From a candidate division WWE3 bacterium (GTDB lineage Bacteria; Patescibacteriota; WWE3; JAPLWK01): 64,000 bases of DNA. The notes under the pieces are model-generated. The model saw only the letters and a program-made list of their open reading frames with translations, searched no databases and was not told the origin of the DNA. This document shows, one piece after another, positions 11,906 to 45,128 of the stretch (positions are counted from its first letter, which is position 1; each line of letters starts with the position of its first letter). Location: the NCBI GenBank assembly GCA_026396615.1, contig JAPLWK010000008.1, positions 75,817 through 139,816 on the forward strand, written 5' to 3'. A program made the position numbers and the translations under genes.

Positions 11906-13633
11906 TCACTTCACTTCAAACCAAGTGCTGTAAATCCAATCTTTCTCCGGGCTACGAACGTTAAAGGCGTAGCGAAAGCGGATGCCAGTGATCTCACCAC
12001 TATCGATTGACCGGTTGGACCCTTCGGCTTTAACCCATTTGACTCGGGAACTGCTGCCTCCCATCGTCTCCACAGACACTGATTTAACGGCTTCGATTGG
12101 CGTCTTCCCCTCACTCTTCAGCATCGAGCGGACATCTTCCATTGACGTTTTGCTGCTGACCTTATCCAAATCCGACGGACTTAAAAGAGCGGTATTTAAA
12201 ACGTCACCCATATCAATTTGTCCAATCTGGGTCCCCTCAGAACTATCCTTTTTTGGCGGAAAACTTTGGGTTTTCCAGGAATTACTCATGAGGGCACTCC
12301 AATTATTGTAGGGCGACATGGTGTCGTTAAAGTCTGTTGACCGAAGATAGGGATAAGCATCGTTAATAGAGCCTGAATCTTTATACTGCCGCGTATCGCT
12401 ATTAAAAGCAAACGACGGTGTGTCGCCAATAGAATCGGTGTGCGGCCCGGAAGTCGAGAAGTAAAAAGCCCGAATTGGTTCGCCTGAATAAACCATAATT
12501 TTACCCCGAGTTTTATCGGCGGCGTCTTTTTTGGCCGTCCCGCCAATGTAAACTTGACAAGCTTGAGTGGTACAAATGGAACTGTTATTTATGGCATAAG
12601 TGCGAGCGGCAATGATTTGGACCCGATCCATGACGGCGGCAGCATCACTATTAATTGTCCGCCACACCGGATCGGTTTCGCCAATTCCGGCTAAATACTC
12701 GTCCTCAAAGTTCATGCTTCCATAACCCTCGACGTTAATCGAGTCTTTAGAGACGGTCTTAAAGTCGATATCGTGATAATAAAATTTAAGAATCCTTTCT
12801 TCGTCCCAACCTTGGGCGGCCAACATAAAAGCGCCCCATTGGCTCATGCCCACTCCATGCTCCGTCCCGTAACCACCAATGCGCCACGAGGGAGCACCGG
12901 AGGCATTTGGAGTATTTGGGCGGCCGGACCCAGATTCTTTAATATTCTGAACGGCCGACTGCTGCCAACTCATTTGACTGCTAATCTCGGCACTTAAGTC
13001 CGACAGTTTCTGACCAAGAATGGCTTCCTGAGCGGCATATTGTGACAAACGAGCCGAGGCTTCATTCGCCTGATTTTTAAGTTTGCTTTGCAAATTAGCT
13101 AAGGCTTGTTGTTGAGCCAGCAATTGATTTTTAATGGACAGGGCTTCCGCTTTGTTGGCCTCAAAATTAGTGATCTCGTCGTTAAGATTGGTAACAGTGG
13201 CGCGAACGTTGTTTAAAGTGACTTTAAAATAGATTAGACGCTCCGGCCATTCCTGCCAGGAATTAGAAGAAAATAAGAGGACCAAAGGAATGACTTCGCC
13301 CCGTTTGTAATAATCCAAAACCGCCGCGTCTCGCAAAGTTTCCTGTATTGCAATTTTGCCTTTGCGATCAGCCAAACTGGCTTCAATTTGAGTTAAAGTT
13401 GACAGCGTGGCCGTAATTTTAGCTTGCACTGCCGCAATTTGAGAGTCGGTTAAGCCCAGTTTGGTAGACAAATCTTTTAGTTCCACCGCCAAGTTGTCTT
13501 TATCGGATTTGAGTTTAGACAGTTGAGTGGCGGTACTTTGATAATCATCCAAAATTGAAGCCGAGGCAACATTTCCGTTGACAGAAAGCGCCAGAGACAC
13601 TAGGATGATGGGAATGAAGAGAAACCACCGCAT
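11906..13633 (-). CDS. SpoIID/LytB-domain protein with signal peptide and long coiled-coil region
   Basis: GYGTEHGVGMSQWGAFMLAAQGWDEERILKFYY is the SpoIID/LytB signature. The N-terminus has EnvC-like coiled coils. The likely true start is MRWFLFIPIILVSLALS (about 13633); the longer ORF extension to 13804 was rejected. Confidence 0.55.
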   Translation of the reverse strand: MRWFLFIPIILVSLALSVNGNVASASILDDYQSTATQLSKLKSDKDNLAVELKDLSTKLGLTDSQIAAVQAKITATLSTLTQIEASLADRKGKIAIQETLRDAAVLDYYKRGEVIPLVLLFSSNSWQEWPERLIYFKVTLNNVRATVTNLNDEITNFEANKAEALSIKNQLLAQQQALANLQSKLKNQANEASARLSQYAAQEAILGQKLSDLSAEISSQMSWQQSAVQNIKESGSGRPNTPNASGAPSWRIGGYGTEHGVGMSQWGAFMLAAQGWDEERILKFYYHDIDFKTVSKDSINVEGYGSMNFEDEYLAGIGETDPVWRTINSDAAAVMDRVQIIAARTYAINNSSICTTQACQVYIGGTAKKDAADKTRGKIMVYSGEPIRAFYFSTSGPHTDSIGDTPSFAFNSDTRQYKDSGSINDAYPYLRSTDFNDTMSPYNNWSALMSNSWKTQSFPPKKDSSEGTQIGQIDMGDVLNTALLSPSDLDKVSSKTSMEDVRSMLKSEGKTPIEAVKSVSVETMGGSSSRVKWVKAEGSNRSIDSGEITGIRFRYAFNVRSPEKDWIYSTWFEVK

Positions 13634-13967
13634 TGGTTTGATTATACCAACTATTTTGGCTTCCCAATTTTTACTGGCTCCCAAAGTTTTGGCCGCGGAT
13701 ATTGCCACTAACGACATCGGTAGTTTTGTGGGCGGTATCGCAGTCGCGGCAGTGGGTATTGGCGGTGGTGTCGCTCTACTTTTAATAATTATTGGTGGCC
13801 TCATGTTTTCTTTAAGTCGTGGCGATCAGGATAAAGTTCAAAAGGCTAAAGATATGATCACCAGCGCTATTGCAGGGCTGCTCTTAATAATCTTCGCGAC
13901 TGTAATTCTTCGAGTCATCGGCGTTGATATCTTTGGTTTACCGGGAATGCCAGTCTTTAATTTCTAG
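13614..13967 (+). CDS. TrbC/VirB2-like pilin-family small membrane protein (paralog 1)
   Basis: Signal peptide MKRNHRIGLIIPTILASQFLLAPKVLAAD, then two hydrophobic helices separated by SRGDQDKVQKAKD. No class III prepilin motif, so this is not a type IV pilus pilin. Confidence 0.5.
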   Translation: MKRNHRIGLIIPTILASQFLLAPKVLAADIATNDIGSFVGGIAVAAVGIGGGVALLLIIIGGLMFSLSRGDQDKVQKAKDMITSAIAGLLLIIFATVILRVIGVDIFGLPGMPVFNF

Positions 13968-13969
13968 TT

Positions 13970-14920
13970 ATGAAATTTTTAAAAGTCTTTTTTTTGTGTT
14001 CGATTATCTCTGCAGCTCTAGTATTTTCAAGTCGACCTGTTTTGGCAGCTGCCGGAGACTGCGGAGCGGGCTCCTGTCCGGCTAATTATACCTGCCAAGC
14101 GACATCCAATCCGATATTTTGTTGCCCAGTTGCTACTCCGACTCTTACCGCTTGTGGCACCAGCTGCTGCGAAGTCGCTAATTGCTATCATCCGGCAATA
14201 GGTTTACCAACCTGCGTTAATACCAACACCAGTAACTTAAGCACCTGTGGAAGTAATCTCTGTGTCACACAAATTTGTTGTGATACAGGCACATTAGATA
14301 ACTGTGTGCCATTACCAGCTGCCGGTTGTAGTCAGCGTCAACGGGTAAACGATGGCTGCGATAGCGACGGCGTTACCTGTCACCTAAAGCCTACCGACGC
14401 TTCGGTCCCCGCGCGGTTCATCACCGCGGCCGGTTCTGAGTGTGGTAATCACTTATGTGACCCCGGTGAGGCGTGTGAGTTTTCGATTGTCGCCGGAGGC
14501 GTACCTTTTACCTGCGATGGCAATGGCGGCACATCACCACTACCTGCTGGACAAACTTGCAACGCCACCTGTACACAAATTATTTCCAACGGCCAAGGTG
14601 GAGCGATTAGCGGCAATCCCTCAACGTATCATCTTGACACCACTGCCATCGGGGTCACCCCTAAATTCACAACGCTTGGTGGCATTACTTCTTTTGTCGT
14701 TAAGACAATGGTCGGGTTGGCTGGCGTGGCTTTTATGATCATGTTTTTGATCGGCGCCTTTAAGTTTGTGACTTCCCAAGGCGATAAAGCGGCTGTAGAG
14801 AGTGCCAAAGGCACGATTACCAGTGCTTTTATTGGCGTGGCCTTAACGGCGGCCTTATTTGCTATAATGACGCTGCTACAGAACGTTTTTGGCGTTTCGT
14901 TACTAAACATCACGACCTAA
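13970..14920 (+). CDS. fusion protein: signal peptide, a Cys-rich extracellular domain of about 200 aa (about 40 Cys), and a C-terminal TrbC/VirB2-like pilin domain (paralog 2)
   Basis: The C-terminal 75 aa (VGLAGVAFMIMFLIGAFKFVTSQGDKAAVESAKGTITSAFIGVALTAALFAIMTLLQNVFG) are homologous to the neighbouring pilin paralogs. Confidence 0.5.
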   Translation: MKFLKVFFLCSIISAALVFSSRPVLAAAGDCGAGSCPANYTCQATSNPIFCCPVATPTLTACGTSCCEVANCYHPAIGLPTCVNTNTSNLSTCGSNLCVTQICCDTGTLDNCVPLPAAGCSQRQRVNDGCDSDGVTCHLKPTDASVPARFITAAGSECGNHLCDPGEACEFSIVAGGVPFTCDGNGGTSPLPAGQTCNATCTQIISNGQGGAISGNPSTYHLDTTAIGVTPKFTTLGGITSFVVKTMVGLAGVAFMIMFLIGAFKFVTSQGDKAAVESAKGTITSAFIGVALTAALFAIMTLLQNVFGVSLLNITT

Positions 14921-14923
14921 GTT

Positions 14924-15238
14924 ATGAACTTAATTACTAAAGCCTACGCTGTTGTGATTGATCCTGGAATGATTGGGGTTAAAAATATTACCCCGGAATC
15001 GGGAATTATGATGGTCGTTAAAGCTCTAATTGGCGCTTGCGGCTTTGGCGCTTTTATTTTTTTAATAATCGGTGGCGTCAAATTTGTGGTCTCAGCGGGA
15101 GACAAAGGGGCCGTGGAAAGTGCTAAAAAGACAATTACCTTCGCCGTCATCGGCCTGGTCCTGGCCGCGGCCGCTTTTGCAATTGCCTCCTTGTTACAAA
15201 ACGTATTAGGGATTAATATTCTAAATGTAACTATCTAA
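14924..15238 (+). CDS. TrbC/VirB2-like pilin-family protein (paralog 3)
   Basis: ALIGACGFGAFIFLIIGGVKFVVSAGDKGAVESAKKTITFAVIGLVLAAAAFAIASLLQNVLGI. Confidence 0.5.
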   Translation: MNLITKAYAVVIDPGMIGVKNITPESGIMMVVKALIGACGFGAFIFLIIGGVKFVVSAGDKGAVESAKKTITFAVIGLVLAAAAFAIASLLQNVLGINILNVTI

Positions 15239-15262
15239 AAACAGGAGGTGACTTAATTTATT

Positions 15263-15620
15263 ATGTTTTTAATCAAAGATCTATTAGTAAAAGCTGCGTA
15301 TGCGGCACCAATTGATATTTTTAAAACTGCAGACGCTACCAGCGTTGACTTAAAAATTCAGAATGTTCAGACAGTAGTTTCTACCGGTATTAAAGCCCTA
15401 ATCGGAGCCGCCGGTTTACTGTTCTTTGTGATGTTAGTCTGGGGTGGTATTCAATTCGTCACTTCTGGCGGCGATAAAGCTCAAGCTACCGCCGCTAAAG
15501 ACCGAATTACTCACGCTTTATTGGCATCGTAATTGTGGCAGCCGCTTTCGCTATTGCCACGTTGCTCCAAAACGTCTTAGGAATTGGAATTACCGATTAC
15601 AACATTAGTAATGCTTACTA
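15263..15620 (+). pseudogene. TrbC/VirB2-like pilin paralog 4, disrupted by a 1-nt deletion frameshift near 15518. It is a near-identical tandem duplicate of paralog 5
   Basis: nt 15401-15588 are identical to 15775-15963 except that a single C is missing. The ORF stops at 15532, but the out-of-frame downstream sequence encodes the conserved C-terminal helix (IVIVAAAFAIATLLQNVLGIG). A good RBS (AGGAGGTGA) is present. Confidence 0.5.
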
Positions 15621-15642
15621 AGGGAGGTGAATTGTTATAATT

Positions 15643-15996
15643 ATGAATTTTTTAAATATAATCTCTGGTAAAGCTTTCGCTGAAAGTGTATTTGTAACCG
15701 GAAATAAAGCCACCGCTGTAGGCTTAAATATCTCCGACACCGGACTTCTGGTGTCCACAGCTATCAAAGCCTTAATCGGAGCCGCCGGTTTACTGTTCTT
15801 TGTGATGTTAGTCTGGGGTGGTATTCAATTCGTCACTTCTGGCGGCGATAAAGCTCAAGCTACCGCCGCTAAAGACCGAATTACTCACGCTCTTATTGGC
15901 ATCGTAATTGTGGCAGCCGCTTTCGCTATTGCCACGTTGCTCCAAAACGTCTTAGGAATTGGAGTTACCAACTTCACGATCCAACAGGCTTACTAA
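15643..15996 (+). CDS. TrbC/VirB2-like pilin-family protein (paralog 5)
   Basis: ALIGAAGLLFFVMLVWGGIQFVTSGGDKAQATAAKDRITHALIGIVIVAAAFAIATLLQNVLGIG. RBS GGGAGGTGA. Confidence 0.55.
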   Translation: MNFLNIISGKAFAESVFVTGNKATAVGLNISDTGLLVSTAIKALIGAAGLLFFVMLVWGGIQFVTSGGDKAQATAAKDRITHALIGIVIVAAAFAIATLLQNVLGIGVTNFTIQQAY

Positions 15997-16059
15997 TCAA
16001 ACGTTTCGCCCGGTAGCTAGGCAATCTAGCTACCGAAGCATCGTTAGATTTTTTAGTAT

Positions 16060-16368
16060 ATGGCTATATGCACAATTGGTGATCCACCCACTATAGATCA
16101 ACTGGGCCCCTGCTTTGTAAGCATTATTAAGCTAGTGGTAGGTTTTGCTGGGGTGGCTACCGTAATTGTGTTTTTAATTGGCACCGTTCAGTACATCACT
16201 TCCCGCGGTGACAAAGAAGGCGTTACCGCGGCTAAGGGTACCCTCACCTACGCCATTATTGGCCTGGTGGTGGTCGCCGTCGCCTTTGGGCTAGTCAGTC
16301 TTATTGACCGAACTATTCTTGGTGGAACCAACACTCTTCTCAACTTCGACGTTCCCAGTATTCACTAA
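16060..16368 (+). CDS. TrbC/VirB2-like pilin-family protein (paralog 6, most divergent)
   Basis: LVVGFAGVATVIVFLIGTVQYITSRGDKEGVTAAKGTLTYAIIGLVVVAVAFGLVSLI has the same architecture as the other paralogs. Confidence 0.45.
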   Translation: MAICTIGDPPTIDQLGPCFVSIIKLVVGFAGVATVIVFLIGTVQYITSRGDKEGVTAAKGTLTYAIIGLVVVAVAFGLVSLIDRTILGGTNTLLNFDVPSIH

Positions 16369-16444: not shown

Positions 16445-19400
16445 ATGCCCAAGCGAGTGTCGATAATATTGGAATTTTCATTATTATTAATTGCAATTAT
16501 TATTCTAAAACCAACCCCCGCCTTTGCCGCTGCTCCGGATCCCGTGGCCTGCTTCACCAACGAAGATCCCACCTTTGGGGGCGTTACTCGAGGCAATTCT
16601 ACCAGCTTTAATGTTCTATTGAACATGAAAATCACCGATTTCTACTGCGCCGCTCCTAACTGGCCCGTCGCTTCCGTTCTTGAAGGCAACGATGCCACGC
16701 ATATGGATGTTGGCACTAACTGCCCGGCGGCCAATGATCCGGCAGTCCTGGCTAAAATCGTGGCCCAACTAAAAAGCCAAATCGAGAATGTTTCCTTAAT
16801 CCCAGGTGCCATGACCAATCCCAGCGTTCTTAGTCAAGCCAATTTTCAGGGCGATACTACTTGGACGTTACTGCGACCGCCTAGTGATATTACTCCCAAC
16901 AAAGTCAACAATATTACCGGCCAAACCGCTCTTAATACAGTGGGCACTTCCAAGATTTACTACGCCGCCTGCACCAACGTGCCCGAGGTGGGACCGGTCT
17001 GGTTTTCAATGGCTAAAGACGTCCCAGCTCCTCAGGGCAAAGTCCTACCCTCGTATCGTAAAGAAGCCGCCGCCTCTTTTTACCTGCAAAATTATTTGAC
17101 CCAAGTGCCGGGTGACGATCCAATCATTAAAGAGCTTAAAAAGGAAACGCCGGTTTTTAATGACAATACTACCTCCGACCTTCTTCCCTTTCCAAAACTT
17201 AGCTTTCAGTTAGCCTCTCGAAAAATTGCCGAAAGCGATTATTTAATTTACTGGAAACTATGCGCCAAAAAGGGACCTGTGGACACAGTCAAAAAAAATA
17301 TTTCATGCCAACTTAGTAATTTTATTACTGACATCGAGCACACCGATGTTAGCGGTGCGAAAAGTCTGGTCGCCGAAATTCCTAACGATGCTTGGGGCAA
17401 GAACACCGGCGATGACTTCACTTGCTTTACCACCGGCGATTTCGACACCCATCCTCTTAAAGTGACAGCAACCCCAGGCAGCAGCTACCCGCTTTCCGTC
17501 AAACTCATTGGCACGCCGATTGACGAAAACGTTTGTCAGAATAATGCGCAGCTCGATAGTGCCGTTTATCTCGACCCCAATAATCAATTGGCATACAGCG
17601 GTTATTCGACTACCCCTCACGTGGCCTTCTGTAATGGCGTCAACTCAACAGTCGTCAACAATACCAGTCAGAGCGTGTGTATTGGTGGAGACTGTCATGT
17701 GACGGCGATTGCCAAATTTTTTAACGACGCTTCCGCTAAAATCAGTGCTGTTTTTGACAATTGGATTCATCAACTCACTCCTACTACTACTTGGGGTGAC
17801 GTAAATCCTGATTCCGCAGCGTCCTGTCAAAAGACAGCGGAAGATATTTGTAATGGCCCCAAAGGTCAAGGCGCTTCTGATAATCTAATCATCACCCAGT
17901 CCACGGACTTCAATTGGATTCAGGTGGATCCGGCCGCCAAACCGGTCGACAAAATAATTAAGGTTTTCGTTACCAACAATAGTAAAAGGGATGCCACCCT
18001 TAATGTTTACAGCCAAGTTCTGGTCACTAGCGAAAGATCGCTCCCGGTAACAATTACCACCTCCAATGCCGCGGGAAGCCAAAATAGTCCTCAAATTGCC
18101 GTTTACGGAAACACTATTTACTGGAATGGCCTGATCGTCCCCGCAAATGGCGTCACTACTGAACTTGATTATCACGTTAGCGTGACTGCAATAAACTCCG
18201 GAACTATTTCAGCTACTTCTGGTGTCAGTGGTGATATTTATAAAACTGTCACTTTTTATAGTGACACTAACTTTGCTTGTCAGAAAGTCGCTGGAGTTGG
18301 TACAAATTCCTGTGATCCTAAAAATAATGACGCCGACTGTAGCGCTAAGCACCTAGCATGTAATAACGGCACCGGTATCTGTGAGTTAGTAAACGGCGCC
18401 GGTACTAATACTTGTTTAACTAATTCCCAATGTAAAGACGACAAGCGACATCTTGACTGTGTAGGTAACGCCTGTGTGGCTGTGCAGGGGACTGGGGTAG
18501 ATAATTGTAATCGTTTGGCGAGTTGTAATACTACTACCCATACCGGTTGTAGCCTCGATTCGGCAAACCCAACTTGCGCGAGTTTTACTTATGTTGGTCC
18601 TAATAAACCAACCAATAATTGCAGTATCAGTGGTAATAGCGGATGCGACGGTGCTAACTCCTCAAGTTTTCATATGGAGTGCAGCAGCGTCGGTAAACCC
18701 GAGCCTAGAGATGTTTCGCAGCCCGAATCGACTTCCACGCAGTCCGGCTTAATTACCGTTTCCAGTACCAACGCTTCTGACGATGAAAACTTATGTGTGA
18801 AGATTGCGAAAATCGTCTGCTATATAACCACTATGCCGTCCCTAATGAGCGGTTACTCCTACACCCAACCTCTAGAGGTTAAAGTTTATCCGTACCCGGA
18901 GGCTTCATATACTCAAGGCATAGACACGCAAGCCGCCAGCCCTAAGGATGGTCTTTTTAATCTCTTCTACGCGCCTGGACAAGATAACAAAATCGCCGCT
19001 TTAAGCGAAAAGGATGTTGACGCCAAAGCCGGATTAAATACTAATATAAACGGTAACAGCCCCGCCACCGACGCTTCGATTAAAGGCAGCCAACAGACCC
19101 TGTCGCCTTTGAAGTATCTGCAGAAAAATGCCCTCTGCCCTCCCGGTCAAGAGGCAACCTGCCCCGATATGCCCCAAACTGTCAACGAGGCGATGCCAAC
19201 TGACGGGAGCATTCCACCTCCCGATACTCCACCGCTACCAGGACCAGTTGTTCCCGGCGCCAACGTTGGCTTCAGCGTTCCAGCTTGCACCGGAGGCAAT
19301 GACGTGGCCATTTCCCAGCGTTCGACCTACACCCAAAATATATTAGCCCAAGCCGCAGCAGCCGAGGGCGTTCCAGTGAGTTTATTAACAGCTATTTTGA

Positions 19401-19852
19401 CCGTCGAAAGCGGTAACGACGCTCTAATCTCCGCCAACGGGACCGCCCCCGTCTGCGTTACTTCTGTTTGTAGTGCTCGCGGCTGGTTTCAAATCACTAG
19501 CGGCTATCAAAATGTGGATTGTAGTGAGTGCAGCGCTTGGTGCTGTGATTACAATAATGACAGCATTAAAGAAGCGGTGTGCTTAGAATCTAGAAGCGCT
19601 TTTGATCCCCCCGGAAATTTTGACCTCTGCAACCCAGCCCAGTCCGCCATCGCCGCTGCTAAAGTTTTAAAGGCTAAGATGGGTGTCGATGGTACACACG
19701 TGTGGACGATCGATGATGCCTGTGTAGCTGCTGCTCGCTACTTTGGAGCGGATAGCTCAGCCTGTGAAACCAGTGGTGGTTATTATCCGCGCCTTGCTAA
19801 CTGTACTTATGGCGGATTTGTAAAAAAGTTTGTGAATATTACCGGACTTTAG
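16445..19852 (+). CDS. giant secreted Cys-rich protein (1135 aa) with C-terminal lytic transglycosylase (SLT, VirB1-like) domain
   Basis: Signal peptide. Three tandem G-x-G-T-N-x-C-x5-6-C modules lie at aa about 620-690. A Pro-rich linker (PPPDTPPLPGPVVPG) follows. The C-terminal LTAILTVESGNDA...GWFQITSGYQ matches the SLT catalytic E-S motif and the GLMQ-type motif. Confidence 0.55.
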   Translation: MPKRVSIILEFSLLLIAIIILKPTPAFAAAPDPVACFTNEDPTFGGVTRGNSTSFNVLLNMKITDFYCAAPNWPVASVLEGNDATHMDVGTNCPAANDPAVLAKIVAQLKSQIENVSLIPGAMTNPSVLSQANFQGDTTWTLLRPPSDITPNKVNNITGQTALNTVGTSKIYYAACTNVPEVGPVWFSMAKDVPAPQGKVLPSYRKEAAASFYLQNYLTQVPGDDPIIKELKKETPVFNDNTTSDLLPFPKLSFQLASRKIAESDYLIYWKLCAKKGPVDTVKKNISCQLSNFITDIEHTDVSGAKSLVAEIPNDAWGKNTGDDFTCFTTGDFDTHPLKVTATPGSSYPLSVKLIGTPIDENVCQNNAQLDSAVYLDPNNQLAYSGYSTTPHVAFCNGVNSTVVNNTSQSVCIGGDCHVTAIAKFFNDASAKISAVFDNWIHQLTPTTTWGDVNPDSAASCQKTAEDICNGPKGQGASDNLIITQSTDFNWIQVDPAAKPVDKIIKVFVTNNSKRDATLNVYSQVLVTSERSLPVTITTSNAAGSQNSPQIAVYGNTIYWNGLIVPANGVTTELDYHVSVTAINSGTISATSGVSGDIYKTVTFYSDTNFACQKVAGVGTNSCDPKNNDADCSAKHLACNNGTGICELVNGAGTNTCLTNSQCKDDKRHLDCVGNACVAVQGTGVDNCNRLASCNTTTHTGCSLDSANPTCASFTYVGPNKPTNNCSISGNSGCDGANSSSFHMECSSVGKPEPRDVSQPESTSTQSGLITVSSTNASDDENLCVKIAKIVCYITTMPSLMSGYSYTQPLEVKVYPYPEASYTQGIDTQAASPKDGLFNLFYAPGQDNKIAALSEKDVDAKAGLNTNINGNSPATDASIKGSQQTLSPLKYLQKNALCPPGQEATCPDMPQTVNEAMPTDGSIPPPDTPPLPGPVVPGANVGFSVPACTGGNDVAISQRSTYTQNILAQAAAAEGVPVSLLTAILTVESGNDALISANGTAPVCVTSVCSARGWFQITSGYQNVDCSECSAWCCDYNNDSIKEAVCLESRSAFDPPGNFDLCNPAQSAIAAAKVLKAKMGVDGTHVWTIDDACVAAARYFGADSSACETSGGYYPRLANCTYGGFVKKFVNITGL

Positions 19853-19885: not shown

Positions 19886-21397
19886 GTGAAACCAGCCACA
19901 ACTACCGCCAAAATAATAGCCCTTATCACCCTTACCGCCTTTATCACCCTTATTAACACCACCCCTACAAATGCGGAGACGATAAGCTGCGGTGAAGTGG
20001 TGCCTACCACTGGTGCTGGGGCCGCTAAAAGCCCTTCCCAATATTTTGAAGTTTCAGTACCGGCCAGCTTTGGTATGTCTGAAGAAGATATTAGAAAGTC
20101 AGCCGAAGAAAAGTTAACCCGAGAAATTACCGTGGCTCAAGATAAATACTCAACTCCCAAAGCCGCCAGTCTCTCCCAAAAATATGAAGACATGCGCTTT
20201 GTGTTGCAGCCGCCAATGAATCCCACCGTCAACAGCTCTGCGCAAGGCATGAGTAAGGCCACGGAATATATAACCGCCTGCGAAGAAGGCACTACTAATT
20301 GGTTTTATATTGAGAGCCAGGGCATTGAAGGGCAAATTAGTAAGGATTTCACCCTGGCCGATAAGGCCACACAGCCCCTCAATGATTATTTAATTCATCT
20401 ACCGCTGTCGCCAACCAGAGTTGAAGAAGTAAATTCCAGCCAAGGGGCCGCCGCTCACTATTTTTTGGACCAACCCGACAGCGGAATTCCCAAGATGTCA
20501 CTGATTCTGCGACCAAGGATCGAAGACACTGATAGTTATAACGTTTATTGGGATCTGTGCGTGACACCTCCCAACCCCTACGACGCGAGTAATAGGGTCA
20601 GTTGCCCTTTTGAAGAGTTTGTGACCGAATTATCGACGAGTACCGGTGACACGCAGTCGATCGTTCCTGGAGCCTATACCAGCTTTGACGGCTCGATCGT
20701 TAACTGGGGAAATAGCCAAAGTGCCATGTGTGTAAGTTCCGAGACGCTAAAACTATCACCCTTTAAAGTTGCTAAAGGCCAAGGAGTGAGCGTGACGGCT
20801 AAGATTTTCGGTCGGCCGAGTGAAGCCAAAAGAGATACTTGCGTTGATAACGCCGCCGAAGTAACAGCCAACGCCTTTGCCTCGATTGATGGTGTGACCA
20901 AAAGTGAACATAGTCAAGCAGCCACCAAAGTGATGTGCCCCGGCGTCTATACCCCGGCCGGCCGGATTTTTAAACCGGAAGACCACTGCATTGCTGGTGT
21001 TTGTAAAATCGACCCGGCTATTCACACTGTTCAATCAATTACCGGAAACCTATGGGCCTGGCTTCAAAGTGCCCTTAGTAACTGCAACTCCGTCGCCGAG
21101 TGTATTGCCAAAATCCTCGTCCAAGACACTCGTAAATACTATGTTTATTTTTATAACGCTGGGGGCAATTACGGAGCCATCAATAGCAGTGCTACCAATA
21201 CCGGCGTTCAGTCCGGTTTTAATCAGTTATTTCGCCCACCTCAAGATGAATTTTCCAGTATCTTTGCCGAGGAACCAGCCGGCGATAACAACCACTTAAG
21301 CCACAACACGCCAATTAAGTCGGACTACACCAAAGTGCAGACGTATTTAACCCCACCGGGACAAAGTTTCCTCACAGATAAATCAGAAATGCGTTAA
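19886..21397 (+). CDS. secreted protein, paralog of the N-terminal domain of the 16445 protein
   Basis: Signal peptide. The shared motifs YNVYWDLCVTPPNP...VSCPFEEFVTE match LIYWKLCAKKGP...ISCQLSNFITD, and SLILRPR matches TLLRPPS. Confidence 0.45.
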   Translation: MKPATTTAKIIALITLTAFITLINTTPTNAETISCGEVVPTTGAGAAKSPSQYFEVSVPASFGMSEEDIRKSAEEKLTREITVAQDKYSTPKAASLSQKYEDMRFVLQPPMNPTVNSSAQGMSKATEYITACEEGTTNWFYIESQGIEGQISKDFTLADKATQPLNDYLIHLPLSPTRVEEVNSSQGAAAHYFLDQPDSGIPKMSLILRPRIEDTDSYNVYWDLCVTPPNPYDASNRVSCPFEEFVTELSTSTGDTQSIVPGAYTSFDGSIVNWGNSQSAMCVSSETLKLSPFKVAKGQGVSVTAKIFGRPSEAKRDTCVDNAAEVTANAFASIDGVTKSEHSQAATKVMCPGVYTPAGRIFKPEDHCIAGVCKIDPAIHTVQSITGNLWAWLQSALSNCNSVAECIAKILVQDTRKYYVYFYNAGGNYGAINSSATNTGVQSGFNQLFRPPQDEFSSIFAEEPAGDNNHLSHNTPIKSDYTKVQTYLTPPGQSFLTDKSEMR

Positions 21398-21497: not shown

Positions 21498-22508
21498 TTA
21501 TTGCAACGCCTTGACGAAATATACAGCCGTCGTCGACCGCCCATCCGCCAACGTCACCGTCCCACTAAACGCATATACCGGTTCCAAATACGTACCTCCC
21601 TTACGAGTTTCCAGATACTCAAGTTTAACGTCAGTGAAACTGGCGGCATTAATTCCCGCCACCATCGCCAAACTATCTCCTACAATTCCCAAAGTCGCGA
21701 GAGTCGCCCGTCCAGCCTTTAAGTCTTCCAAAGCCGTTTCGATCGTCTTTAAAGGATAAACCCCAAAACTACCGTCACCATTTTGCAGCAAATGATAGTA
21801 AAACTTACCGGAAATTAGACCGTCATTTTGCCAACCAAAAGTTATCAGGGTTTCGTCACCAGGCAAACTGGTTACCGGCACATTATTAACGATTCGCAGC
21901 ACATTAAAATCGCCGGTTGGCGTATTTAAAGGCTGGTCGAAACTTAAATCAGGATAATTTAAATCCAGTGATTTTAATAGATTCTGCAGCACTTCGGTCT
22001 TTGAAGAAGCCTCCCCGCCAAATGACGCGATATCGCGAGGCTGCGCCAAGTTAAAAATAAAGCCATCGCTTACGGAATCGTAAAATAGATAATTGCCTTT
22101 TTCCTGCCACGTCTGACCCCCAAAAGTCGGTTTTGACTTAACCGTAAAACCTAATTTGACCGCCAATTTGTCTAGGGTGGACGGGGTTAAAACAGCTGTT
22201 TGCCCAAAGCGATAGACTCGAGCGGTCGCTGGAAACTTTAAAGTCGCTGTATCAATAAAGCTCTGCATGGCTGAAGGAGTGGCTCCCGGAATCGGGCTCG
22301 GTGGTAAAGAAATGACCGGCAGCGAGCCGAAAGTTTGGCTAACAGGCTCGCTAGGCACGGTAGTTGAAGTTGCCGGGGTCGTTGGTGCCGAGCTGCGCGA
22401 GGCCAACAAAAAGATGATTAAACCAATCCCGACAGCGCTAATAATGGCAATGGCCAGGATTTTATTATTCGCATAAAACTCTTTAAAAGCGGCAATATAT
22501 TTATCCAT
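21498..22508 (-). CDS. bitopic membrane protein (N-terminal TM anchor, Pro/Thr-rich linker, extracytoplasmic domain)
   Basis: TM ILAIAIISAVGIGLIIFLLA. Its start codon abuts the stop of the upstream 1178-aa gene. A VirB8/PrgL-like role is pure speculation. Confidence 0.35.
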   Translation of the reverse strand: MDKYIAAFKEFYANNKILAIAIISAVGIGLIIFLLASRSSAPTTPATSTTVPSEPVSQTFGSLPVISLPPSPIPGATPSAMQSFIDTATLKFPATARVYRFGQTAVLTPSTLDKLAVKLGFTVKSKPTFGGQTWQEKGNYLFYDSVSDGFIFNLAQPRDIASFGGEASSKTEVLQNLLKSLDLNYPDLSFDQPLNTPTGDFNVLRIVNNVPVTSLPGDETLITFGWQNDGLISGKFYYHLLQNGDGSFGVYPLKTIETALEDLKAGRATLATLGIVGDSLAMVAGINAASFTDVKLEYLETRKGGTYLEPVYAFSGTVTLADGRSTTAVYFVKALQ

Positions 22509-25500
22509 TAAGAACCTCCACTACAAACCGCAGCCGTCGAATTAACATAAGTTTCCGGGCAGACGCGGCTACCACTCGGATCAAAGATTTCATAATGTAA
22601 ATGGTACCCCGTGGAATAACCGGTTGATCCGGTTTTACCAACAATGCCGCCAATTCCCACATGCCAACAAGAACCCGTTGGCTTTCCGGGCATATAGCCG
22701 CTACCGGAATCACCGGCAATCGGTTGAAGGTGGGCGTAACGAGTGCGGTAACCGCCATCACCGGTAATATCAATATACACACCGTAAGGTAAATTGTTAT
22801 TGTTTTCGGTGGAAACGGCGTAACGACAAGCATTTCCCGCGATTAAAGCGTGGATCTCTGTGCCATCGCCGTAAGGTAAGTCGACGGCCAGCAACCCCTC
22901 ACTACCCTGATGCCAGGAACAGCCAAAAGTGACAGAGGCTGCCCCATCAGGCAAGCCACATGGCGCTATTTCCGCCGGCGTCCCCACTTTTATAACGGCG
23001 GTGGCGCTGTTACTCACACTCGCCCCCGAAATTGTGCCGGTGGCCGTCACCGTAGCAACAATAAAACGACTAGTGGTCGTGTACACTGTCATATTACAAG
23101 TATAGGTGATGCTGGCTCCTGCGGCCAGAGTCCCGGACCCAAAAGAAATATTCCCGCCGGATTCGGTGCCACTGGGCGTACAGGAACCGTAGCTAACGCC
23201 ATGGCCTGGTTGATAATTGTAATTAACGTTTAAACCGATAAGTTCGCTGCTACTGATATTAGTCACCTTTATGGTGTAAACAACAGCGGGACTGGAGTTT
23301 AAAGTTATAATTGGGCGGTCCACCGACATCTCTACTTTTAGATTAGGTGACGCCGCCCCCGCATCCGCCCCGCCGTGAGCGTTAAAATTCGCCCCGCCAA
23401 TTACCCCCATCGCGCCAAAAAGTAGTAGTGGGAATAGACATCCCACCGCGCAACAACCACAACTAACCACTTTTATATTTTCCCCGGAACTCATGAAGCC
23501 GTAATCGGTAAATACGGTCATTTTAAAAGGTCGCCAATAAAAAGCTGCCGCTTTTGACACCGGCCCCTTAATCGCACTCCAAATCTTCCCTAAAAGTTTT
23601 TGGCCAATCCACGCCAAAACAGCGGTGATAATTGGACCTAAAACAGGAAGGGCATTAGATAACGCTTCGATTCCGCCTAATATAGCCCCCAAAACTGCTT
23701 TTAAAGCCACTTTAAGTGCACCTTTAAGACCTAGCTTAAGTGCCATTTTGGCCCCAGAAGAAATAAGTCTTGTCTTTAACAGTAAAGCCCAAGCCTTAGG
23801 ATCCGCCGCAGCTGATTTTACCCAGCCACCTCTAAAAAAATTGATGGGACCCTTCAGCCACGGAACTCTTTTAAAGAGCGCCTCGAAGGCCACGCTTTGA
23901 AGATGATCTAAATTTTTACCGACTGAAGATACGGCCCCAATATATTTCTTAGCCAATCCATGAGAATCGATATCTTCCCAAAATTTAGCGAATTTGGTTA
24001 AATCAGAAACGCTGCCAGTAGCATCAATAATACCGTGGCTAGTTAGAAATGCCTTAATTTGCGGGTTTTTAGCTAAAAAGGTAGCTAATTCCCCCGCTGT
24101 AAGACCGGCCACATCACGAGTCATCCCAGGAGCTTGACTAACAGACCGACCAATAACAGCCTGAAGAACATCAATACTCCCTGGAGCCCCTGAAAGAATT
24201 CCATTGATTTCTGCGGCACTTACTAATGGAAGATTAGTAGAAGGATCAATTATAGAGGCTGCTTTCTGTAAGAAGTTAACTACTTTCCAATCGGTGTCAG
24301 CAAAACCTAAAGCGCTACTTACTTTACCGGCAGTTAGCTTAATTGTTCTCTTAGCGACATCTTTATATTCTTTTTTGACGGGATCCCAGGTAGAGGCTCC
24401 GAAAGCGTCGAATTTATCAATTACATGTATGTATCCAAAATTCTCGGTGTCAATTAAACCAAATGATAACCTATTTACAACATTCGCTAATTTGGGATGA
24501 TCCGCAACTGCTTTAGTTAATTTGTAGAATGGCTGCCAACCGGTTATATCTGTGTCATCAAATCCATTTAGCAACCCGAATGTTTTTACCTTCTTCATTG
24601 CAAAACTAACGTAGTCTGCTGGGCTTAAGTACTTGGCGTATTGGGAAATGCCAGGAATATATTTGGCGACCCTGGTACCCCAAACAAAAAACTTAAAAAA
24701 AGATTTTGAATCAACTGCTTCTAAAAAGTCTGTCGCGGTACTTTGAGTTTCACGATAATTAACTAACTTCACCCAAGTCACCATCCGAGTTGCTTCAGTT
24801 GCAGACAAGCCTAGATCAGTCAAATATTGCGTACCACCCTTCAACACATCCTTCCACGTTTGATCAACATTTTTATACATCTCCTGATACTCTTTCTCTT
24901 TTTCCCAGAATTTATCTCTCGCCGCTTTAAGGTCAGGGTTGGTCATACTGGCCGCGGCGGCCGCCCCAATAACCAGTGGTTGGGGTACAAACGGAACCGC
25001 TAGGACACCTAACCCAGCAGTCGCGGGACTCATGCTACTTAGCCCTTTATTAAACCTATCTTGTATTTTCCCTTTGGTACTTATGTCAAATCTTAAGTTG
25101 TCCCACTTTCTTCCTTGAATATCCCCACTAAAAGGATGAAAAACACCACCGGAATCGGTATAACCGGTTTGTACTACACCGCTTGTGTCTGTATAAGAAT
25201 ACGTAACCGTCTGAGTTGGTGGAGCCACAGCAAAAGGATCTACTTTATCCGCTACCTCTATTGCTGACCCTTGAAGATTCTGCCAACGCAATGCAGCCGC
25301 TTGAACAGCCGGATTAGGAGAGGCTAACATGCTGGTTAAATTAGCCGCATTTATTTGGGCGTTAATAGAATCCAATAAATCAACTTGAAGATCTTGGTAA
25401 TTCTTTAAACGGCTAGGGCGACTACCGCGAGTTATTCCCCATTTCTGAATATCGTTAGCCACTTTCTTGTACATGTCGGTTCCGTTAACTATTACAGAAG

Positions 25501-26044
25501 CTGAAGAGCTGATAGCCCCAGTAACAGGATCTTCTACAACTAAACCTTTACCACCGATACCGTGATTCTCACCTTTAACTAAAGGCTGCCAAAAATACTC
25601 CAGCTCTGCAACTGCTTCTAGATCTTCCGTGTTAACTACTGCTTTCCACCAATTATCTGCAGTTTTTTCTAAAACTTTCTCAGGGTCATCTAACCAATCT
25701 TTTAAATTTAGGGAGAGTGGGGTGCCCGCAGCTCCTGGGAGGTCCCTGAGTTCTTGTTTAGTAGTTTCTACATCAATATCCTTCTCACGATCACCTTCAG
25801 GGTTATAGCGAGCGCTCAAGAAGCGGTTTATATCTGCACCTAAATTTTTATAAACTTTAGCCGGATAAGTACCAATATTTAAATCGTCTATAAAAGCGTC
25901 AAAATCGCCCTCGTCTAAAAGTCCACCCCCGTACTCATAAGGCTCCCATTCTTTTACGTAGCCTCGAGCAATCGGTTTTCTACCTTTTGGGGGAACTTTT
26001 TTAAAACTCCGGCCTGGGCCTCGCTTCTTTTTGGGTGGTGGCAT
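22508..26044 (-). CDS. giant protein (1178 aa). It has a highly basic N-terminus, a long alpha-helical region with a Gly/Ala/Lys-rich amphipathic segment and a TM, a DUF11/CARDB-like beta domain, and a C-terminal peptidase M23 (LytM) domain
   Basis: The C-terminal TGYSTGYHLHYEI and HALIAGNACRYA...YGVYIDI match the M23 HxxxD / HLH metal-binding motifs. The N-terminus is MPPPKKKRGPGRSFKKVPPKGRKP. A tape-measure-like AL-K-rich stretch lies at aa about 720-800. Confidence 0.55.
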   Translation of the reverse strand: MPPPKKKRGPGRSFKKVPPKGRKPIARGYVKEWEPYEYGGGLLDEGDFDAFIDDLNIGTYPAKVYKNLGADINRFLSARYNPEGDREKDIDVETTKQELRDLPGAAGTPLSLNLKDWLDDPEKVLEKTADNWWKAVVNTEDLEAVAELEYFWQPLVKGENHGIGGKGLVVEDPVTGAISSSASVIVNGTDMYKKVANDIQKWGITRGSRPSRLKNYQDLQVDLLDSINAQINAANLTSMLASPNPAVQAAALRWQNLQGSAIEVADKVDPFAVAPPTQTVTYSYTDTSGVVQTGYTDSGGVFHPFSGDIQGRKWDNLRFDISTKGKIQDRFNKGLSSMSPATAGLGVLAVPFVPQPLVIGAAAAASMTNPDLKAARDKFWEKEKEYQEMYKNVDQTWKDVLKGGTQYLTDLGLSATEATRMVTWVKLVNYRETQSTATDFLEAVDSKSFFKFFVWGTRVAKYIPGISQYAKYLSPADYVSFAMKKVKTFGLLNGFDDTDITGWQPFYKLTKAVADHPKLANVVNRLSFGLIDTENFGYIHVIDKFDAFGASTWDPVKKEYKDVAKRTIKLTAGKVSSALGFADTDWKVVNFLQKAASIIDPSTNLPLVSAAEINGILSGAPGSIDVLQAVIGRSVSQAPGMTRDVAGLTAGELATFLAKNPQIKAFLTSHGIIDATGSVSDLTKFAKFWEDIDSHGLAKKYIGAVSSVGKNLDHLQSVAFEALFKRVPWLKGPINFFRGGWVKSAAADPKAWALLLKTRLISSGAKMALKLGLKGALKVALKAVLGAILGGIEALSNALPVLGPIITAVLAWIGQKLLGKIWSAIKGPVSKAAAFYWRPFKMTVFTDYGFMSSGENIKVVSCGCCAVGCLFPLLLFGAMGVIGGANFNAHGGADAGAASPNLKVEMSVDRPIITLNSSPAVVYTIKVTNISSSELIGLNVNYNYQPGHGVSYGSCTPSGTESGGNISFGSGTLAAGASITYTCNMTVYTTTSRFIVATVTATGTISGASVSNSATAVIKVGTPAEIAPCGLPDGAASVTFGCSWHQGSEGLLAVDLPYGDGTEIHALIAGNACRYAVSTENNNNLPYGVYIDITGDGGYRTRYAHLQPIAGDSGSGYMPGKPTGSCWHVGIGGIVGKTGSTGYSTGYHLHYEIFDPSGSRVCPETYVNSTAAVCSGGS

Positions 26045-26122: not shown

Positions 26123-26233
26123 AGTAAATGAATTTGAAATTCTAAATTTGAAATTTGAAATTGTAAATTATCTACAGAGGAACTTTGAGGCTTTGTAAAT
26201 CTTTATCTAAGGCGTTTAGATCGGCGTCTGGCG

Positions 26234-26974
26234 TCAATCTTTGGCTAGCGATAAACACCACACTTGCCCGCAACCGGCTTCTTTTAAAGCTTTCGCGGCG
26301 GAAAGGAAAGTGGCCCCGGTCGTACAGACATCGTCAATCAGAAGAATGTCCTTGTCGACTAGTTTTGACGTGACCTGCGACCGGACTTTAAAAGCCCCGC
26401 TAACATTTTGGTGACGTTCTTCCCTCTTCAATCTGGTTTGGGTTTTAGTATTCTTGATCCGCAATAGGGATTTGACGTCTAAAGTTAAACCAAAGTATGT
26501 AACGAGAGAGCGGGCAATTAGTTCCGAAACATTAAAACCACGGATCATCCGCCGTCGCCAATGTAAAGGAATCGGGATAACGATGGTTTCAGGACCGAAT
26601 GACACTCCTTTATCGACTAATTCCGACCAGGCGATTGGCAGTAATTCCTGAAGAGAATTAAAGGCGTATGGCGAATATTTGGCCTTTTGGAGGATTTTCG
26701 AAAACGGCCGTTTGTAAGTATAAATCGACAGGAATTTTTCCGGTGTAAATTGCGTCGCGCATTGACGATGCGTGTGACCTTTTACTGAGGCCTTGTCGCA
26801 TTTTAAACATACGTTATCACTGCAGAATTTAAGATCACGCTGGCAATCGCCGCAAACAAACTGACCCCTCTTCCCGCAACCGCCACAACGAATTGGAAAT
26901 AATAAATCTCCAATAACTTTCAAGAAGTTATCCACAGTGGTTGTTGTGCTTGTCATTACTGCTTTTAGCGACAT
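26234..26974 (-). CDS. comFC: ComF family protein (ComFC; phosphoribosyltransferase domain with N-terminal double zinc ribbon)
   Basis: N-terminal CGGCGK...CGDCQ...CLKCDK and C-terminal LLIDDVCTTGATFLSAAKALKEAG (the PRTase motif). Confidence 0.75.
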   Translation of the reverse strand: MSLKAVMTSTTTTVDNFLKVIGDLLFPIRCGGCGKRGQFVCGDCQRDLKFCSDNVCLKCDKASVKGHTHRQCATQFTPEKFLSIYTYKRPFSKILQKAKYSPYAFNSLQELLPIAWSELVDKGVSFGPETIVIPIPLHWRRRMIRGFNVSELIARSLVTYFGLTLDVKSLLRIKNTKTQTRLKREERHQNVSGAFKVRSQVTSKLVDKDILLIDDVCTTGATFLSAAKALKEAGCGQVWCLSLAKD

Positions 26975-43745: not shown

Positions 43746-45128
43746 TCATTTCTTACCCGCCGGCTTCGCAGGCTTCCCCGGGCTCCACCCACCACCCACC
43801 TGCAAAGCGGCTTCTATCTTCTGAGGAATAGATCTGGCAGTCCACACAAACCATAGTCCAATCACCCAATTAAAAATTAATCCTAAAAAAGCAAAAGGTG
43901 TTGAATTTAAGTCGCCTACAATCTGATTTATCATAATTGTAGGCCCTTTTATTAAAATGTTGGTTCCCAGGGATACAAAAAGCCACATAGCAGGTATGGC
44001 AAGAACATTACCAATTAGGGACTTAAACCAACTGGTGATCATTTCGTCTTTTCCCGGAAGAGCGCCTACCAAAAACTGCAGCGGAGCAAAGATTGTCATC
44101 AGCATTATCCTACCAAACCTTGTAAAATAGCTTATTCCAACAGCAATTAAAGCTAAGATATAAGTTACGACTAAAACTAAAAGGAGGCATAATACAAAAA
44201 GCGCAACACCAGTTCCAACACCAGAAGCTCCAGCAGCGGATAAAGCAACCACGCCCAGGGCGGAAACGACAAGTTGAACGAGAACATCTACCATATCTGG
44301 TTGAGAAAAAACGCCACCGACAACTAATTTACCAACAAAATCTCCTAAGACTGGAATTAATTTTATAGCGAAACCAGCGATTGGGTAACTAAAAGTTATT
44401 AGTAGTAAACAAACAACAACTTTTGGTAAAGCGTCCTGAACCGTAATTACCGTTTGCGGTTTAATCTCGTGTCGAAACATCACCATGAAACCGAAGGCCA
44501 CTAGAATAATCACAAATAGTAGGTAGGCTAAATTTCTGAATGCCTTCCATAAATCAAGCACCGTGGTGCCAAAAATACCATCTGCAAGAGTACCCGCAGC
44601 ATAGGCACTTTGGGGAACTAATGGCGAATCTCTCTTAATGTCATTAATATATAAAGCTAAGTTTACCGGCAGTAAATCGACTCGTTTCGGTGCTTCGGAG
44701 GTTACAGCATAAGTCACGCCTAAAAGACTAGGAGGCATAACTTGTGAAGACTGAGGTTTCATATTTGTAAGCGGAGAATTCGTAAGGCATTTTCTTACCT
44801 CAACCGTGGCAGACGCGCGATCTTTAGAAGCAGCCGTTACCTCACTCATATCACAATTACCAAAAATTAGCGTCTGAGAAGCCGCGTTTACCCCAGCCAC
44901 GGCTAAATTACTGGTCCATTTGTCCATATCTGTTGCCAAATGCCTTAAATCATTAAGAGATTTTAAACCTACAGTAGTTAGAGCAAAGTCTAGTACATCT
45001 GCTTTAACAGGTTTAGCTAAAATAAAAGAGCCAATGCTGAAAGTGCTAATGAGGATTAAAAGGATTAAAGATAGAGACAAACGAGATTTCATAATGTTTA
45101 TGCTACAGAGTACGTTGACCGTAGTCAA
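43746..45128 (-). CDS. polytopic membrane protein with signal peptide and a 200-aa N-terminal ectodomain (VirB6/TrbL-like topology, speculative)
   Basis: Signal peptide, then at least 6 TM helices. C-terminal Lys/Pro tail. Confidence 0.3.
   Translation of the reverse strand: MTTVNVLCSINIMKSRLSLSLILLILISTFSIGSFILAKPVKADVLDFALTTVGLKSLNDLRHLATDMDKWTSNLAVAGVNAASQTLIFGNCDMSEVTAASKDRASATVEVRKCLTNSPLTNMKPQSSQVMPPSLLGVTYAVTSEAPKRVDLLPVNLALYINDIKRDSPLVPQSAYAAGTLADGIFGTTVLDLWKAFRNLAYLLFVIILVAFGFMVMFRHEIKPQTVITVQDALPKVVVCLLLITFSYPIAGFAIKLIPVLGDFVGKLVVGGVFSQPDMVDVLVQLVVSALGVVALSAAGASGVGTGVALFVLCLLLVLVVTYILALIAVGISYFTRFGRIMLMTIFAPLQFLVGALPGKDEMITSWFKSLIGNVLAIPAMWLFVSLGTNILIKGPTIMINQIVGDLNSTPFAFLGLIFNWVIGLWFVWTARSIPQKIEAALQVGGGWSPGKPAKPAGKK

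Follow-up and report, generated by a model that had tools for sequence, protein, structure and literature searches.

The 64,000-nucleotide stretch of DNA analysed here (the window; contig JAPLWK010000008.1, positions 75,817 to 139,816) comes from a candidate division WWE3 bacterium and encodes a 1178-residue protein that starts with a very basic peptide, continues as a long helical region and ends in an M23 peptidase domain. The question raised by this gene is which cellular or phage system such a protein would serve. A first-pass annotation made from the sequence had likened it to phage tape-measure proteins and to hydrolases of type IV secretion systems (T4SSs), and had suggested a DNA-translocation context from the proximity of comFC. 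We favour, at a probability a little better than even (about 0.55), the reading that the protein is a bitopic, T4SS-docked, VirB1-like wall hydrolase belonging to the chromosomal Patescibacteria-type T4SS of this bacterium, a system resembling the monoderm mating-pair-formation class MPF-FATA. The secretion system itself has already been described; the protein is a hydrolase of a known T4SS-associated kind, fused to a large and previously unannotated module. The evidence is of four observed kinds: domain composition, topology signals, family distribution and conserved synteny.

Domain architecture and membrane topology

The open reading frame (ORF) spans positions 22508..26044 on the minus strand (26044→22508; 1178 residues plus the stop codon), the first-pass annotation having given this extent with the strand unstated. 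An NCBI entry identical to the product is named ‘MAG: peptidoglycan DD-metalloendopeptidase family protein [candidate division WWE3 bacterium]’. The protein divides into an N-terminal module of ~860 residues (the N-module), a strong transmembrane (TM) helix and a C-terminal part containing two recognisable domains, and can be described as a bitopic, T4SS-associated M23 protein. All of its parts are given below in minus-strand coordinates.

The N-module begins with the sequence MPPPKKKRGPGRSFKKVPPKGRKP, and its first 40 residues carry a net charge of +9 and contain 20% Lys and 20% Pro. Residues 1–24 (25973..26044) form a basic Pro/Gly peptide whose GPGRxFKKVPPKGKKP sequence is invariant in close homologues and represents the local form of a family-wide (Y/F/G)PG…P…R/K motif. 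Within the module, both conservation and model quality are highest in the N-domain at residues 41–270 (25235..25924), which carries the signature LPGAxG…LN(P)xDWxxDPxK…KT…W…WxD…E…WxPL at residues 98–156 (25577-25753). The central region that follows (residues 271–770; 23735..25234) is all-helical and Cys-free; a NYRETQSxAxDFLEAxD block at residues 429–445 is conserved, and the segments 271–369 and 531–650 are poorly conserved and modelled with low confidence. Hydropathy and the AlphaFold2 model together define a set of Lys/Ala/Leu/Gly-rich amphipathic helices at residues 771–841 (23522..23734), which would rest on the cytoplasmic face of the membrane. In the model, helix is nearly unbroken from residue 45 to residue 886, with moderate confidence (mean predicted local distance difference test score, pLDDT, of 66 for the full-length protein and 63 for residues 1–890; predicted TM-scores of 0.58 and 0.65). 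A Walker A motif was looked for in the protein and none was seen.

Hydropathy identifies a single strong TM helix at residues 863–886 (23387..23458), interpreted as a signal anchor, and two weak hydrophobic stretches, one Pro-rich at residues 345–366 and the other at residues 795–819. Among 54 family members, the Cys density changes 37-fold across the strong TM segment, from 0.07 per 100 residues before it to 2.76 per 100 residues after it. Lys and Arg in the 20 residues upstream of the helix outnumber those downstream in 44 of the same 54 members, with the reverse in three. In the WWE3 protein, residues 41–770 contain no Cys and 8.2% Lys, and the C-terminal 292 residues contain eight Cys and 1.7% Lys; six of these Cys residues (C955, C983, C1029, C1042, C1162 and C1174) are invariant among four close homologues. 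On the basis of this Cys asymmetry and the positive-inside charge bias, the protein is predicted to adopt a type II (N-in/C-out) orientation, with the N-module in the cytoplasm and the immunoglobulin (Ig)-like and M23 domains outside. The ectodomain is probably disulfide-bonded. A catalytic domain tethered outside the membrane, one of the attributes of VirB1-like proteins, is thus a prediction from the strong TM helix, the 44-versus-3 charge bias and the Cys asymmetry.

The first of the two C-terminal domains is an Ig-like β-sandwich of the DUF11/CLIPPER type at residues 902–1020 (22985..23341). Its assignment combines the β-sandwich fold with a match to Pfam DUF11 (PF01345) over residues 902–1014 that lies above threshold (25.7 bits versus a cut-off of 24.6). 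The second is the Peptidase M23 domain at residues 1054–1154 (22583..22885), matched by Pfam Peptidase_M23 (PF01551) with E=7e-9 and 36.2 bits versus a cut-off of 28.7, and modelled with the β-fold of this family. Asp1055, His1105 (in a YAHL sequence) and the His1148-Leu-His1150 pair (in HLHYE) are invariant in close homologues and align with the corresponding residues of solved M23 enzymes, making a zinc-dependent peptidoglycan endopeptidase activity plausible. No glycosidase domain of the lytic transglycosylase or lysozyme type appears in Pfam and NCBIfam scans of the protein, which detect the M23 and DUF11 domains only. The first-pass description of the protein, comprising a very basic N-terminus, about 800 residues of helix with an Ala/Leu/Lys/Gly-rich amphipathic stretch, one TM segment, a DUF11-like β-domain and a C-terminal M23 domain, thus agrees with the models and profiles at each point.

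The N-module family and its gene neighbourhood

The C-terminal domains are of familiar types, and the relationships of the N-module were sought separately. Prefiltered homologue searches begun from the protein itself, from a 15-sequence alignment of N-modules or from the homologue at locus L043 (loci in related genomes are given L numbers) each returned 4–6 close relatives; the word prefilter used in such searches misses the divergent family. An exhaustive search of 1.84 billion cluster representatives with a profile of residues 1–860 matched 59 proteins at E≤1e-3, including 17 at E≤1e-10. Most of these are 750–1400 residues long, and the part most widely matched falls within residues ~25–175, where the core signature reads E-x-LPGAxG-x4-LN(P)xDWxxDPxK-x3-KT-x3-W-x7-WxD-x5-E-x4-WxPL. 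Nearly all complete members also start with a short (F)YPGYYPGxPxxRxP motif, of which the invariant GPGRxFKKVPPKGKKP peptide is the version in the subfamily of the WWE3 protein. Each member has one strong TM segment located ~170–460 residues (typically 220–300) from its C-terminus.

What follows the TM segment is variable. Among 46 family members scanned with Pfam, 12 have a C-terminal M23 domain and four a CHAP domain, five contain DUF11, and the other C-termini are unrecognised. The family can be defined by the N-terminal motif, the LPGAxG…DWxxDP…W…WxD signature, a Cys-free stretch of ~500–1100 residues, the single strong TM segment and a Cys-rich C-terminal ectodomain. The WWE3 protein has every one of these features, and in it the Cys-free stretch is predicted to be helical.

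Comparisons of the N-module with existing collections gave no relatives of known function. There is no match in Pfam, even at E≤1 over 15 members, none in NCBIfam or among Protein Data Bank (PDB) sequences, and none in PHROGs outside the M23 domain. Foldseek finds no significant similarity to PDB folds (best E=1.1, TM-score ≤0.1) or to the viral structure models of BFVD (best E=0.026, TM-score ≤0.11). Searches with tblastn of 50,697 phage records and of plasmid records were negative, the N-module was not found in IMG/VR, and no T4SS profile in Pfam or NCBIfam matched the whole protein significantly. As judged from these sequence comparisons, the N-module of ~860 residues is a distinct, rare and previously unannotated family that is restricted to the candidate phyla radiation (CPR).

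The strongest functional indication comes from the genes around homologues in related genomes. Full-length homologues exist at 34–39% identity, and in the locus of one of them, on the 37.8-kb L001 contig, all the relevant genes form one block. This block runs from dnaA, rnpA, yidC, jag and dnaN through a 334-residue gene, virB4, a TraC/TrsD-like gene, a PrgI-like gene and a 422-residue gene to the target homologue and its 331-residue partner, followed by convergent genes for proteins of 459 and 1003–1175 residues, five pilin genes and a SpoIID gene. With the exception of the 334-residue gene, every gene in the block could be mapped onto the window by tblastn. The T4SS locus is contiguous next to dnaN in L001, L005 and L061 (positions 1–23555 of L001 were compared with the window). 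Distant homologues, with ~17–25% identity, keep the T4SS neighbours seen in L001.

A genome-contig search with the target-family alignment found no related loci, and a degenerate DNA pattern run over species representatives gave 80 loci, mostly GC-rich noise, of which hmmsearch confirmed eight. The same T4SS neighbours surround the homologues in eight species-representative genomes (three labelled WWE3, three ‘Candidatus Saccharibacteria’ and two Patescibacteria group). The protein is thus encoded within a T4SS gene cluster, in synteny with VirB4, TrsD, PrgI and pilin genes in relatives, as is characteristic of the VirB1-like class. Of the resemblances proposed at first pass, that to T4SS hydrolases is the one that gains support, mainly from this conserved neighbourhood.

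The window itself contains the components of a Patescibacteria-type T4SS: a VirB4-like protein, a TrsD protein (NF041427), a PrgI protein (PF12666) and six pilins (PF18895), with dnaA at position 48286. Published systems of this type are MPF-FATA-like, lie near dnaA, have VirB2 arrays and usually lack a relaxase (PMC12102498; PMC12857230; PMC10633639). The locus corresponds to these published Patescibacteria T4SSs (Quinonero-Coronel 2025; Wang 2023).

The gene immediately upstream of the ORF also needs to be placed. In the window this is a ComFC-like gene with DZR_2 and Pribosyltran domains (26234-26974, minus strand), ~190 bp away and upstream of the ORF rather than following it as had first been described. 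In all 10 related loci in which the upstream flank was compared, the corresponding position is occupied by a gene for a polytopic VirB6 candidate, adjacent to the target homologue and divergent from it, and comFC is found there in none. The adjacency of comFC in the window is therefore taken to be incidental, a rearrangement having split the locus in this genome. To the check suggested at first pass, whether homologues co-localize with comEC/comFC or with T4SS genes, the loci compared answer in favour of T4SS genes. Neither of the outcomes that the first-pass annotation would have taken as a refutation, a lack of any M23 match or a confinement of homologues to prophages, was seen.

Proposed role and competing explanations

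In the mechanism that we propose, the Cys-free, all-helical N-module would stay in the cytoplasm or at the membrane and dock on the VirB6 candidate and on the PrgI/VirB3-like, TrsD-like and VirB4 proteins. The helix at residues 863–886 would serve as an uncleaved signal anchor that exports the Cys-rich part of the protein, consisting of the DUF11/CLIPPER spacer and the M23 domain. Held in place by the machine, the M23 domain would then open the peptide cross-links of peptidoglycan locally and so create a passage for the VirB2-like pilus or channel, with glycan cutting supplied separately by a SpoIID-like protein and by the SLT-like C-terminus of a 1135-residue secreted protein. The wall that is opened may be that of the bacterium itself or that of a host. 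M23 and CHAP domains interchange among family members, and wall hydrolysis is therefore likely to be the selected function; these are also the peptidase types of monoderm VirB1-like proteins (PMC12102498).

Several points weigh against this reading. The N-module is linked to VirB4 or to the VirB6 candidate by synteny alone, and its AlphaFold2 model is only moderately confident. The glycosidase domain that is the hallmark of VirB1 is missing from the protein, and the first zinc-ligand His of its peptidase domain is displaced. In the one genome pair compared, the protein is 36% identical to its L001 orthologue, versus 85% for VirB4 and 77% for TrsD; such fast evolution of the N-module would be unusual for a cytoplasmic docking domain. 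Finally, the weak hydrophobic stretches at residues 345–366 and 795–819 may also cross the membrane, giving a three-pass protein.

The closest functional parallels are the membrane-anchored LytM/M23 or CHAP proteins of MPF-FATA T4SS loci, namely PrgK of pCF10, TraG of pIP501, TcpG, CwlT and CD419/TrsG, which are presumed to open the wall locally (PMC12102498). In these monoderm VirB1-like proteins the N-terminal anchor is short and one or more glycosidase domains (SLT or lysozyme) are present, whereas the WWE3 protein has an unrelated helical N-module of ~860 residues and no glycosidase. Surveys of Patescibacteria find VirB1-like hydrolases only patchily associated with virB4 (PMC12102498).

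The most suggestive precedent, and possibly an analogous protein, is SEML1_0007 of the saccharibacterium Candidatus Southlakia epibionticum ML1. This protein has 1113 residues, of which only the C-terminal ~150 are recognisable, as a DD-peptidase fold, and its structural neighbours in AFDB include an M23-domain protein (Wang 2023 supplements). Its gene lies beside virB4 in a T4SS cluster near dnaA/dnaN, is followed by overlapping downstream genes that include those for a lysozyme and a PEGA-domain exported protein, and is essential for epibiotic growth in transposon sequencing (Wang 2023 supplements). SEML1_0007 resembles the WWE3 protein in size, C-terminal peptidase and T4SS locus. It differs in having a Hedgehog/DD-peptidase (M15-like) fold instead of M23 and in gene order, its gene following virB4 without being divergent from virB6.

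No T4SS other than that of Patescibacteria is known to be required for growth by the cell that carries it (Wang 2023; PMC12857230). The WWE3 protein provides a concrete candidate for a wall-breaching component. A large protein that combines a conserved N-terminal peptide with exchangeable wall hydrolases occupies a constant position in the locus across WWE3 and related lineages, and the family signature (the N-terminal PG motif together with the LPGAxG…DW..DP block) can be used to find members elsewhere. The comparison also offers a hypothesis for SEML1_0007, an unexplained essential gene in the sole genetically tractable CPR organism.

Whether the M23 domain is an enzyme at all bears directly on the proposed mechanism. 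The residue four positions before Asp1055, where the HxxxD motif of M23 peptidases has its first His, is Leu in the WWE3 protein, and its close homologues have either Leu or Arg there. A His residue does occur 6–10 residues before the Asp, with a spacing that varies even among close homologues, and it lies in a loop modelled at a pLDDT of <50, a model from which it cannot be judged whether the side chain reaches the metal. The activity is uncertain because of this Leu at the canonical position of the first zinc ligand and the variable spacing of the nearby His. One sub-branch of the family goes further and has YYG…D at this site, with no His at all. The domain could instead be a non-catalytic docking or regulatory module, as in SpoIIQ, EnvC, NlpD and DipM, that tethers the T4SS to peptidoglycan or to the host surface, or activates the SpoIID- or SLT-like hydrolase; the SpoIID homologue is a conserved neighbour, and the LytM domain of PrgK is reportedly dispensable or inactive. 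We nevertheless regard this alternative as unlikely. The four remaining catalytic positions are invariant in close homologues, the canonical HxGxD motif is retained in several family members, and the replacement of M23 by CHAP in others indicates that it is enzymatic activity that is conserved. SpoIIQ, in the A–Q channel of Bacillus sporulation, and EnvC/FtsEX use M23 domains without catalytic residues as scaffolds or activators, whereas the WWE3 protein keeps four of five catalytic positions; its large N-module also has no counterpart in those systems.

An alternative that we likewise consider improbable retains the hydrolase and changes its destination. Here the T4SS would export the entire protein by means of the N-terminal motif, pushing it out in the manner of a phage tape-measure or ejection protein, with its hydrophobic helices inserting into the host membrane and its hydrolase breaching the host wall to form a conduit between epibiont and host. 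The architecture does look polymorphic, with a conserved N-module joined to a variable M23 or CHAP domain, and the N-terminal motif occurs in nearly all members. A long, all-helical protein with hydrophobic helices would suit such a role, and a Cys-free N-module is expected also of a substrate that is exported unfolded. The rapid divergence of the protein relative to core T4SS proteins keeps an exported translocon or effector in play, and the top BFVD matches, although non-significant, are tape-measure proteins. These tape-measure fold matches, however, all have TM-scores ≤0.11 and E≥0.026. The positive-inside bias and the 37-fold Cys asymmetry are what would be expected of a stable N-in/C-out anchor whose C-terminus alone enters an oxidising compartment. 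Unlike an immunity gene, the downstream partner does not vary together with the type of hydrolase, and no homologue was found in phage, plasmid or IMG/VR searches. The T4SS signals known so far are C-terminal, which also counts against export by the N-terminal motif.

A bolder and doubtful extension is that the N-module constitutes an unrecognised core part of CPR secretion. It might act as an ATPase-coupled inside-out transducer through which cytoplasmic VirB4 gates the extracellular wall hydrolase, or it might itself be extruded through the T4SS as a feeding conduit into the host cell, resembling a tape measure or ejectosome. In either case the invariant N-terminal peptide would represent a new kind of signal for recognition or export. 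Such a core part, if true in one form or the other, would give molecular access to the way in which ultra-small epibionts break into host cells and feed on them.

An accessory role in competence or DNA uptake, in concert with ComFC, is very improbable. It draws on the ComFC-like gene on the same strand just upstream, an adjacency unique to the genome of the window and contradicted by the VirB6 candidate in that position in the 10 related loci; a promoter-like site separates comFC from the ORF, and in Southlakia comEC is dispensable and the T4SS essential (PMC12857230).

Those phage tape-measure and ejection proteins that end in a muralytic domain, such as T5 Pb2, have ~1200 residues, a long helical region, hydrophobic segments and a wall-cutting metallopeptidase. 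Derivation of the WWE3 protein from such a protein or from a prophage remnant is effectively refuted, since the likeness in size, helix content, hydrophobic segments and C-terminal M23 domain is compositional only: the matches to PHROG tape-measure families (E ~5e-6) are confined to the M23 domain (residues 1053–1171), the N-module matches nothing in the 50,697 phage genomes or IMG/VR and has no significant match among viral structure models, and all loci examined are chromosomal, with T4SS and housekeeping genes and no capsid, terminase or tail genes. The first-pass annotation had itself noted that phage structural genes are absent nearby, which holds, as the window is chromosomal and carries housekeeping genes. 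As envelope-spanning devices the two are conceptually alike, but the topology signals indicate that the WWE3 protein is resident in the membrane, unlike tape-measure proteins.

The window locus and its neighbouring genes

The window belongs to the chromosome, near the origin of replication, and contains dnaA, dnaN, dnaG, rpoD, pnp, infB, nusA, dnaK/dnaJ, the tmRNA gene and tRNA genes. The T4SS locus is in three pieces on both sides of dnaA, with comFC, the tmRNA gene, dnaG, rpoD, pnp, infB and nusA in between. One piece is the gene at 43746-45128 beside dnaN, another is the PrgI/TrsD/VirB4 group beyond dnaA, and the third, at 11.9–26 kb, contains the target, its partner, the secreted proteins, the pilins and SpoIID. 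Among the window ORFs scanned, in which those of <~300 residues were only partly covered, none contains a relaxase or type IV coupling protein domain.

The piece beside dnaN (43746..45128, minus strand) encodes a polytopic membrane protein of 460 residues with a signal peptide and ~7 TM segments. It is a VirB6 candidate by topology and position only: no VirB6, TrbL or PrgH profile matches it, and nothing in Pfam, NCBIfam or PDB sequences does so. The piece beyond dnaA encodes the VirB4-like ATPase (627 residues; 54406-56289), the TrsD/TraD-like protein (231 residues; 56293-56988; NF041427) and the PrgI/VirB3-like protein (56985-58403; PF12666), all on the minus strand and all contiguous with the target homologue in relatives. 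The 231-residue TrsD-like protein is matched in addition by NCBIfam models of the VirB4 family, over their N-terminal part (NF045975, E=4.6e-12), which is consistent with a VirB4 N-domain encoded separately, just upstream of the VirB4-like ATPase.

The gene that follows the target ORF (21498..22508, minus strand) encodes a partner of 336 residues and appears to be translationally coupled to it, the stop codon of the one overlapping the start codon of the other in the sequence TAATG; the abutment of the two genes reported at first pass is thus an overlap. The partner has a short N-terminus with an FxxF(I/Y)xxNK motif, one TM segment and an ectodomain. A bitopic gene directly follows the target homologue in eight of the nine other loci read, although BLASTP similarity links only some of these; examples are found at L005 13696-14208, L008 5333-5944, L017 3971-4765, L035 2926-3669 and L007 5678-6973. 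The partner family is characterized by a cytoplasmic N-terminal …F(I/Y)KxNKK motif, a TM segment and an ectodomain of variable length, with Big_5 Ig-like or PEGA domains in some relatives and none detectable in the window copy. Similarity can be detected between the partners of members of the M23 type, the CHAP type and those unassigned by Pfam, and an immunity function was rejected because the partners are related across hydrolase types. A VirB8-like (NTF2) identity is not supported either, as the partner has no Pfam or PDB match and the domains present in its relatives are Big_5 or PEGA.

Convergent with the target operon are two genes on the plus strand for Cys-rich secreted proteins that belong to no Pfam family, one of 1135 residues (16445-19852) and one of 503 residues (19886-21397). 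Both are syntenic in relatives and are only 30–39% identical to their L001 counterparts. The C-terminus of the 1135-residue protein (its last ~170 residues, matched over residues ~968–1030) gives a sub-threshold match to SLT (E=0.0034, 17.4 bits versus a cut-off of 21.3) that covers the catalytic Glu-Ser region. The SpoIID-like protein (632 residues; 11906..13804, minus strand) has a coiled-coil N-terminal half and flanks the pilin array in the window as in L001, L003, L005, L007 and L035. This protein seems to be a conserved component of the locus that has gone unremarked, and it is a candidate for glycan cleavage.

Upstream of the target ORF, the best promoter-like site (TTTACA-17-TAGAAT; 26131..26167, minus strand) overlaps a 7-bp tandem repeat. 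The repeat, at 26131-26167, consists of 4.6 copies of AATTTGA, and its 18-mer pattern is strongly over-represented, with nine matches versus 0.5 expected. No conservation of the heptamer is seen in front of the L001 or L005 orthologue.

The pilin array consists of six VirB2-like T4SS_pilin (PF18895) paralogues on the plus strand (13578..16368), convergent with the target operon. A direct repeat of ~245 nt links positions 15377-15621 and 15751-15996 (identities of 96% and 88%; offset of 1 nt). On account of this repeat, the 89-residue pilin-like ORF at 15263-15532 is interpreted as a recent truncated or frameshifted copy of the pilin gene at 15643-15996, which suggests that turnover of the array is ongoing.

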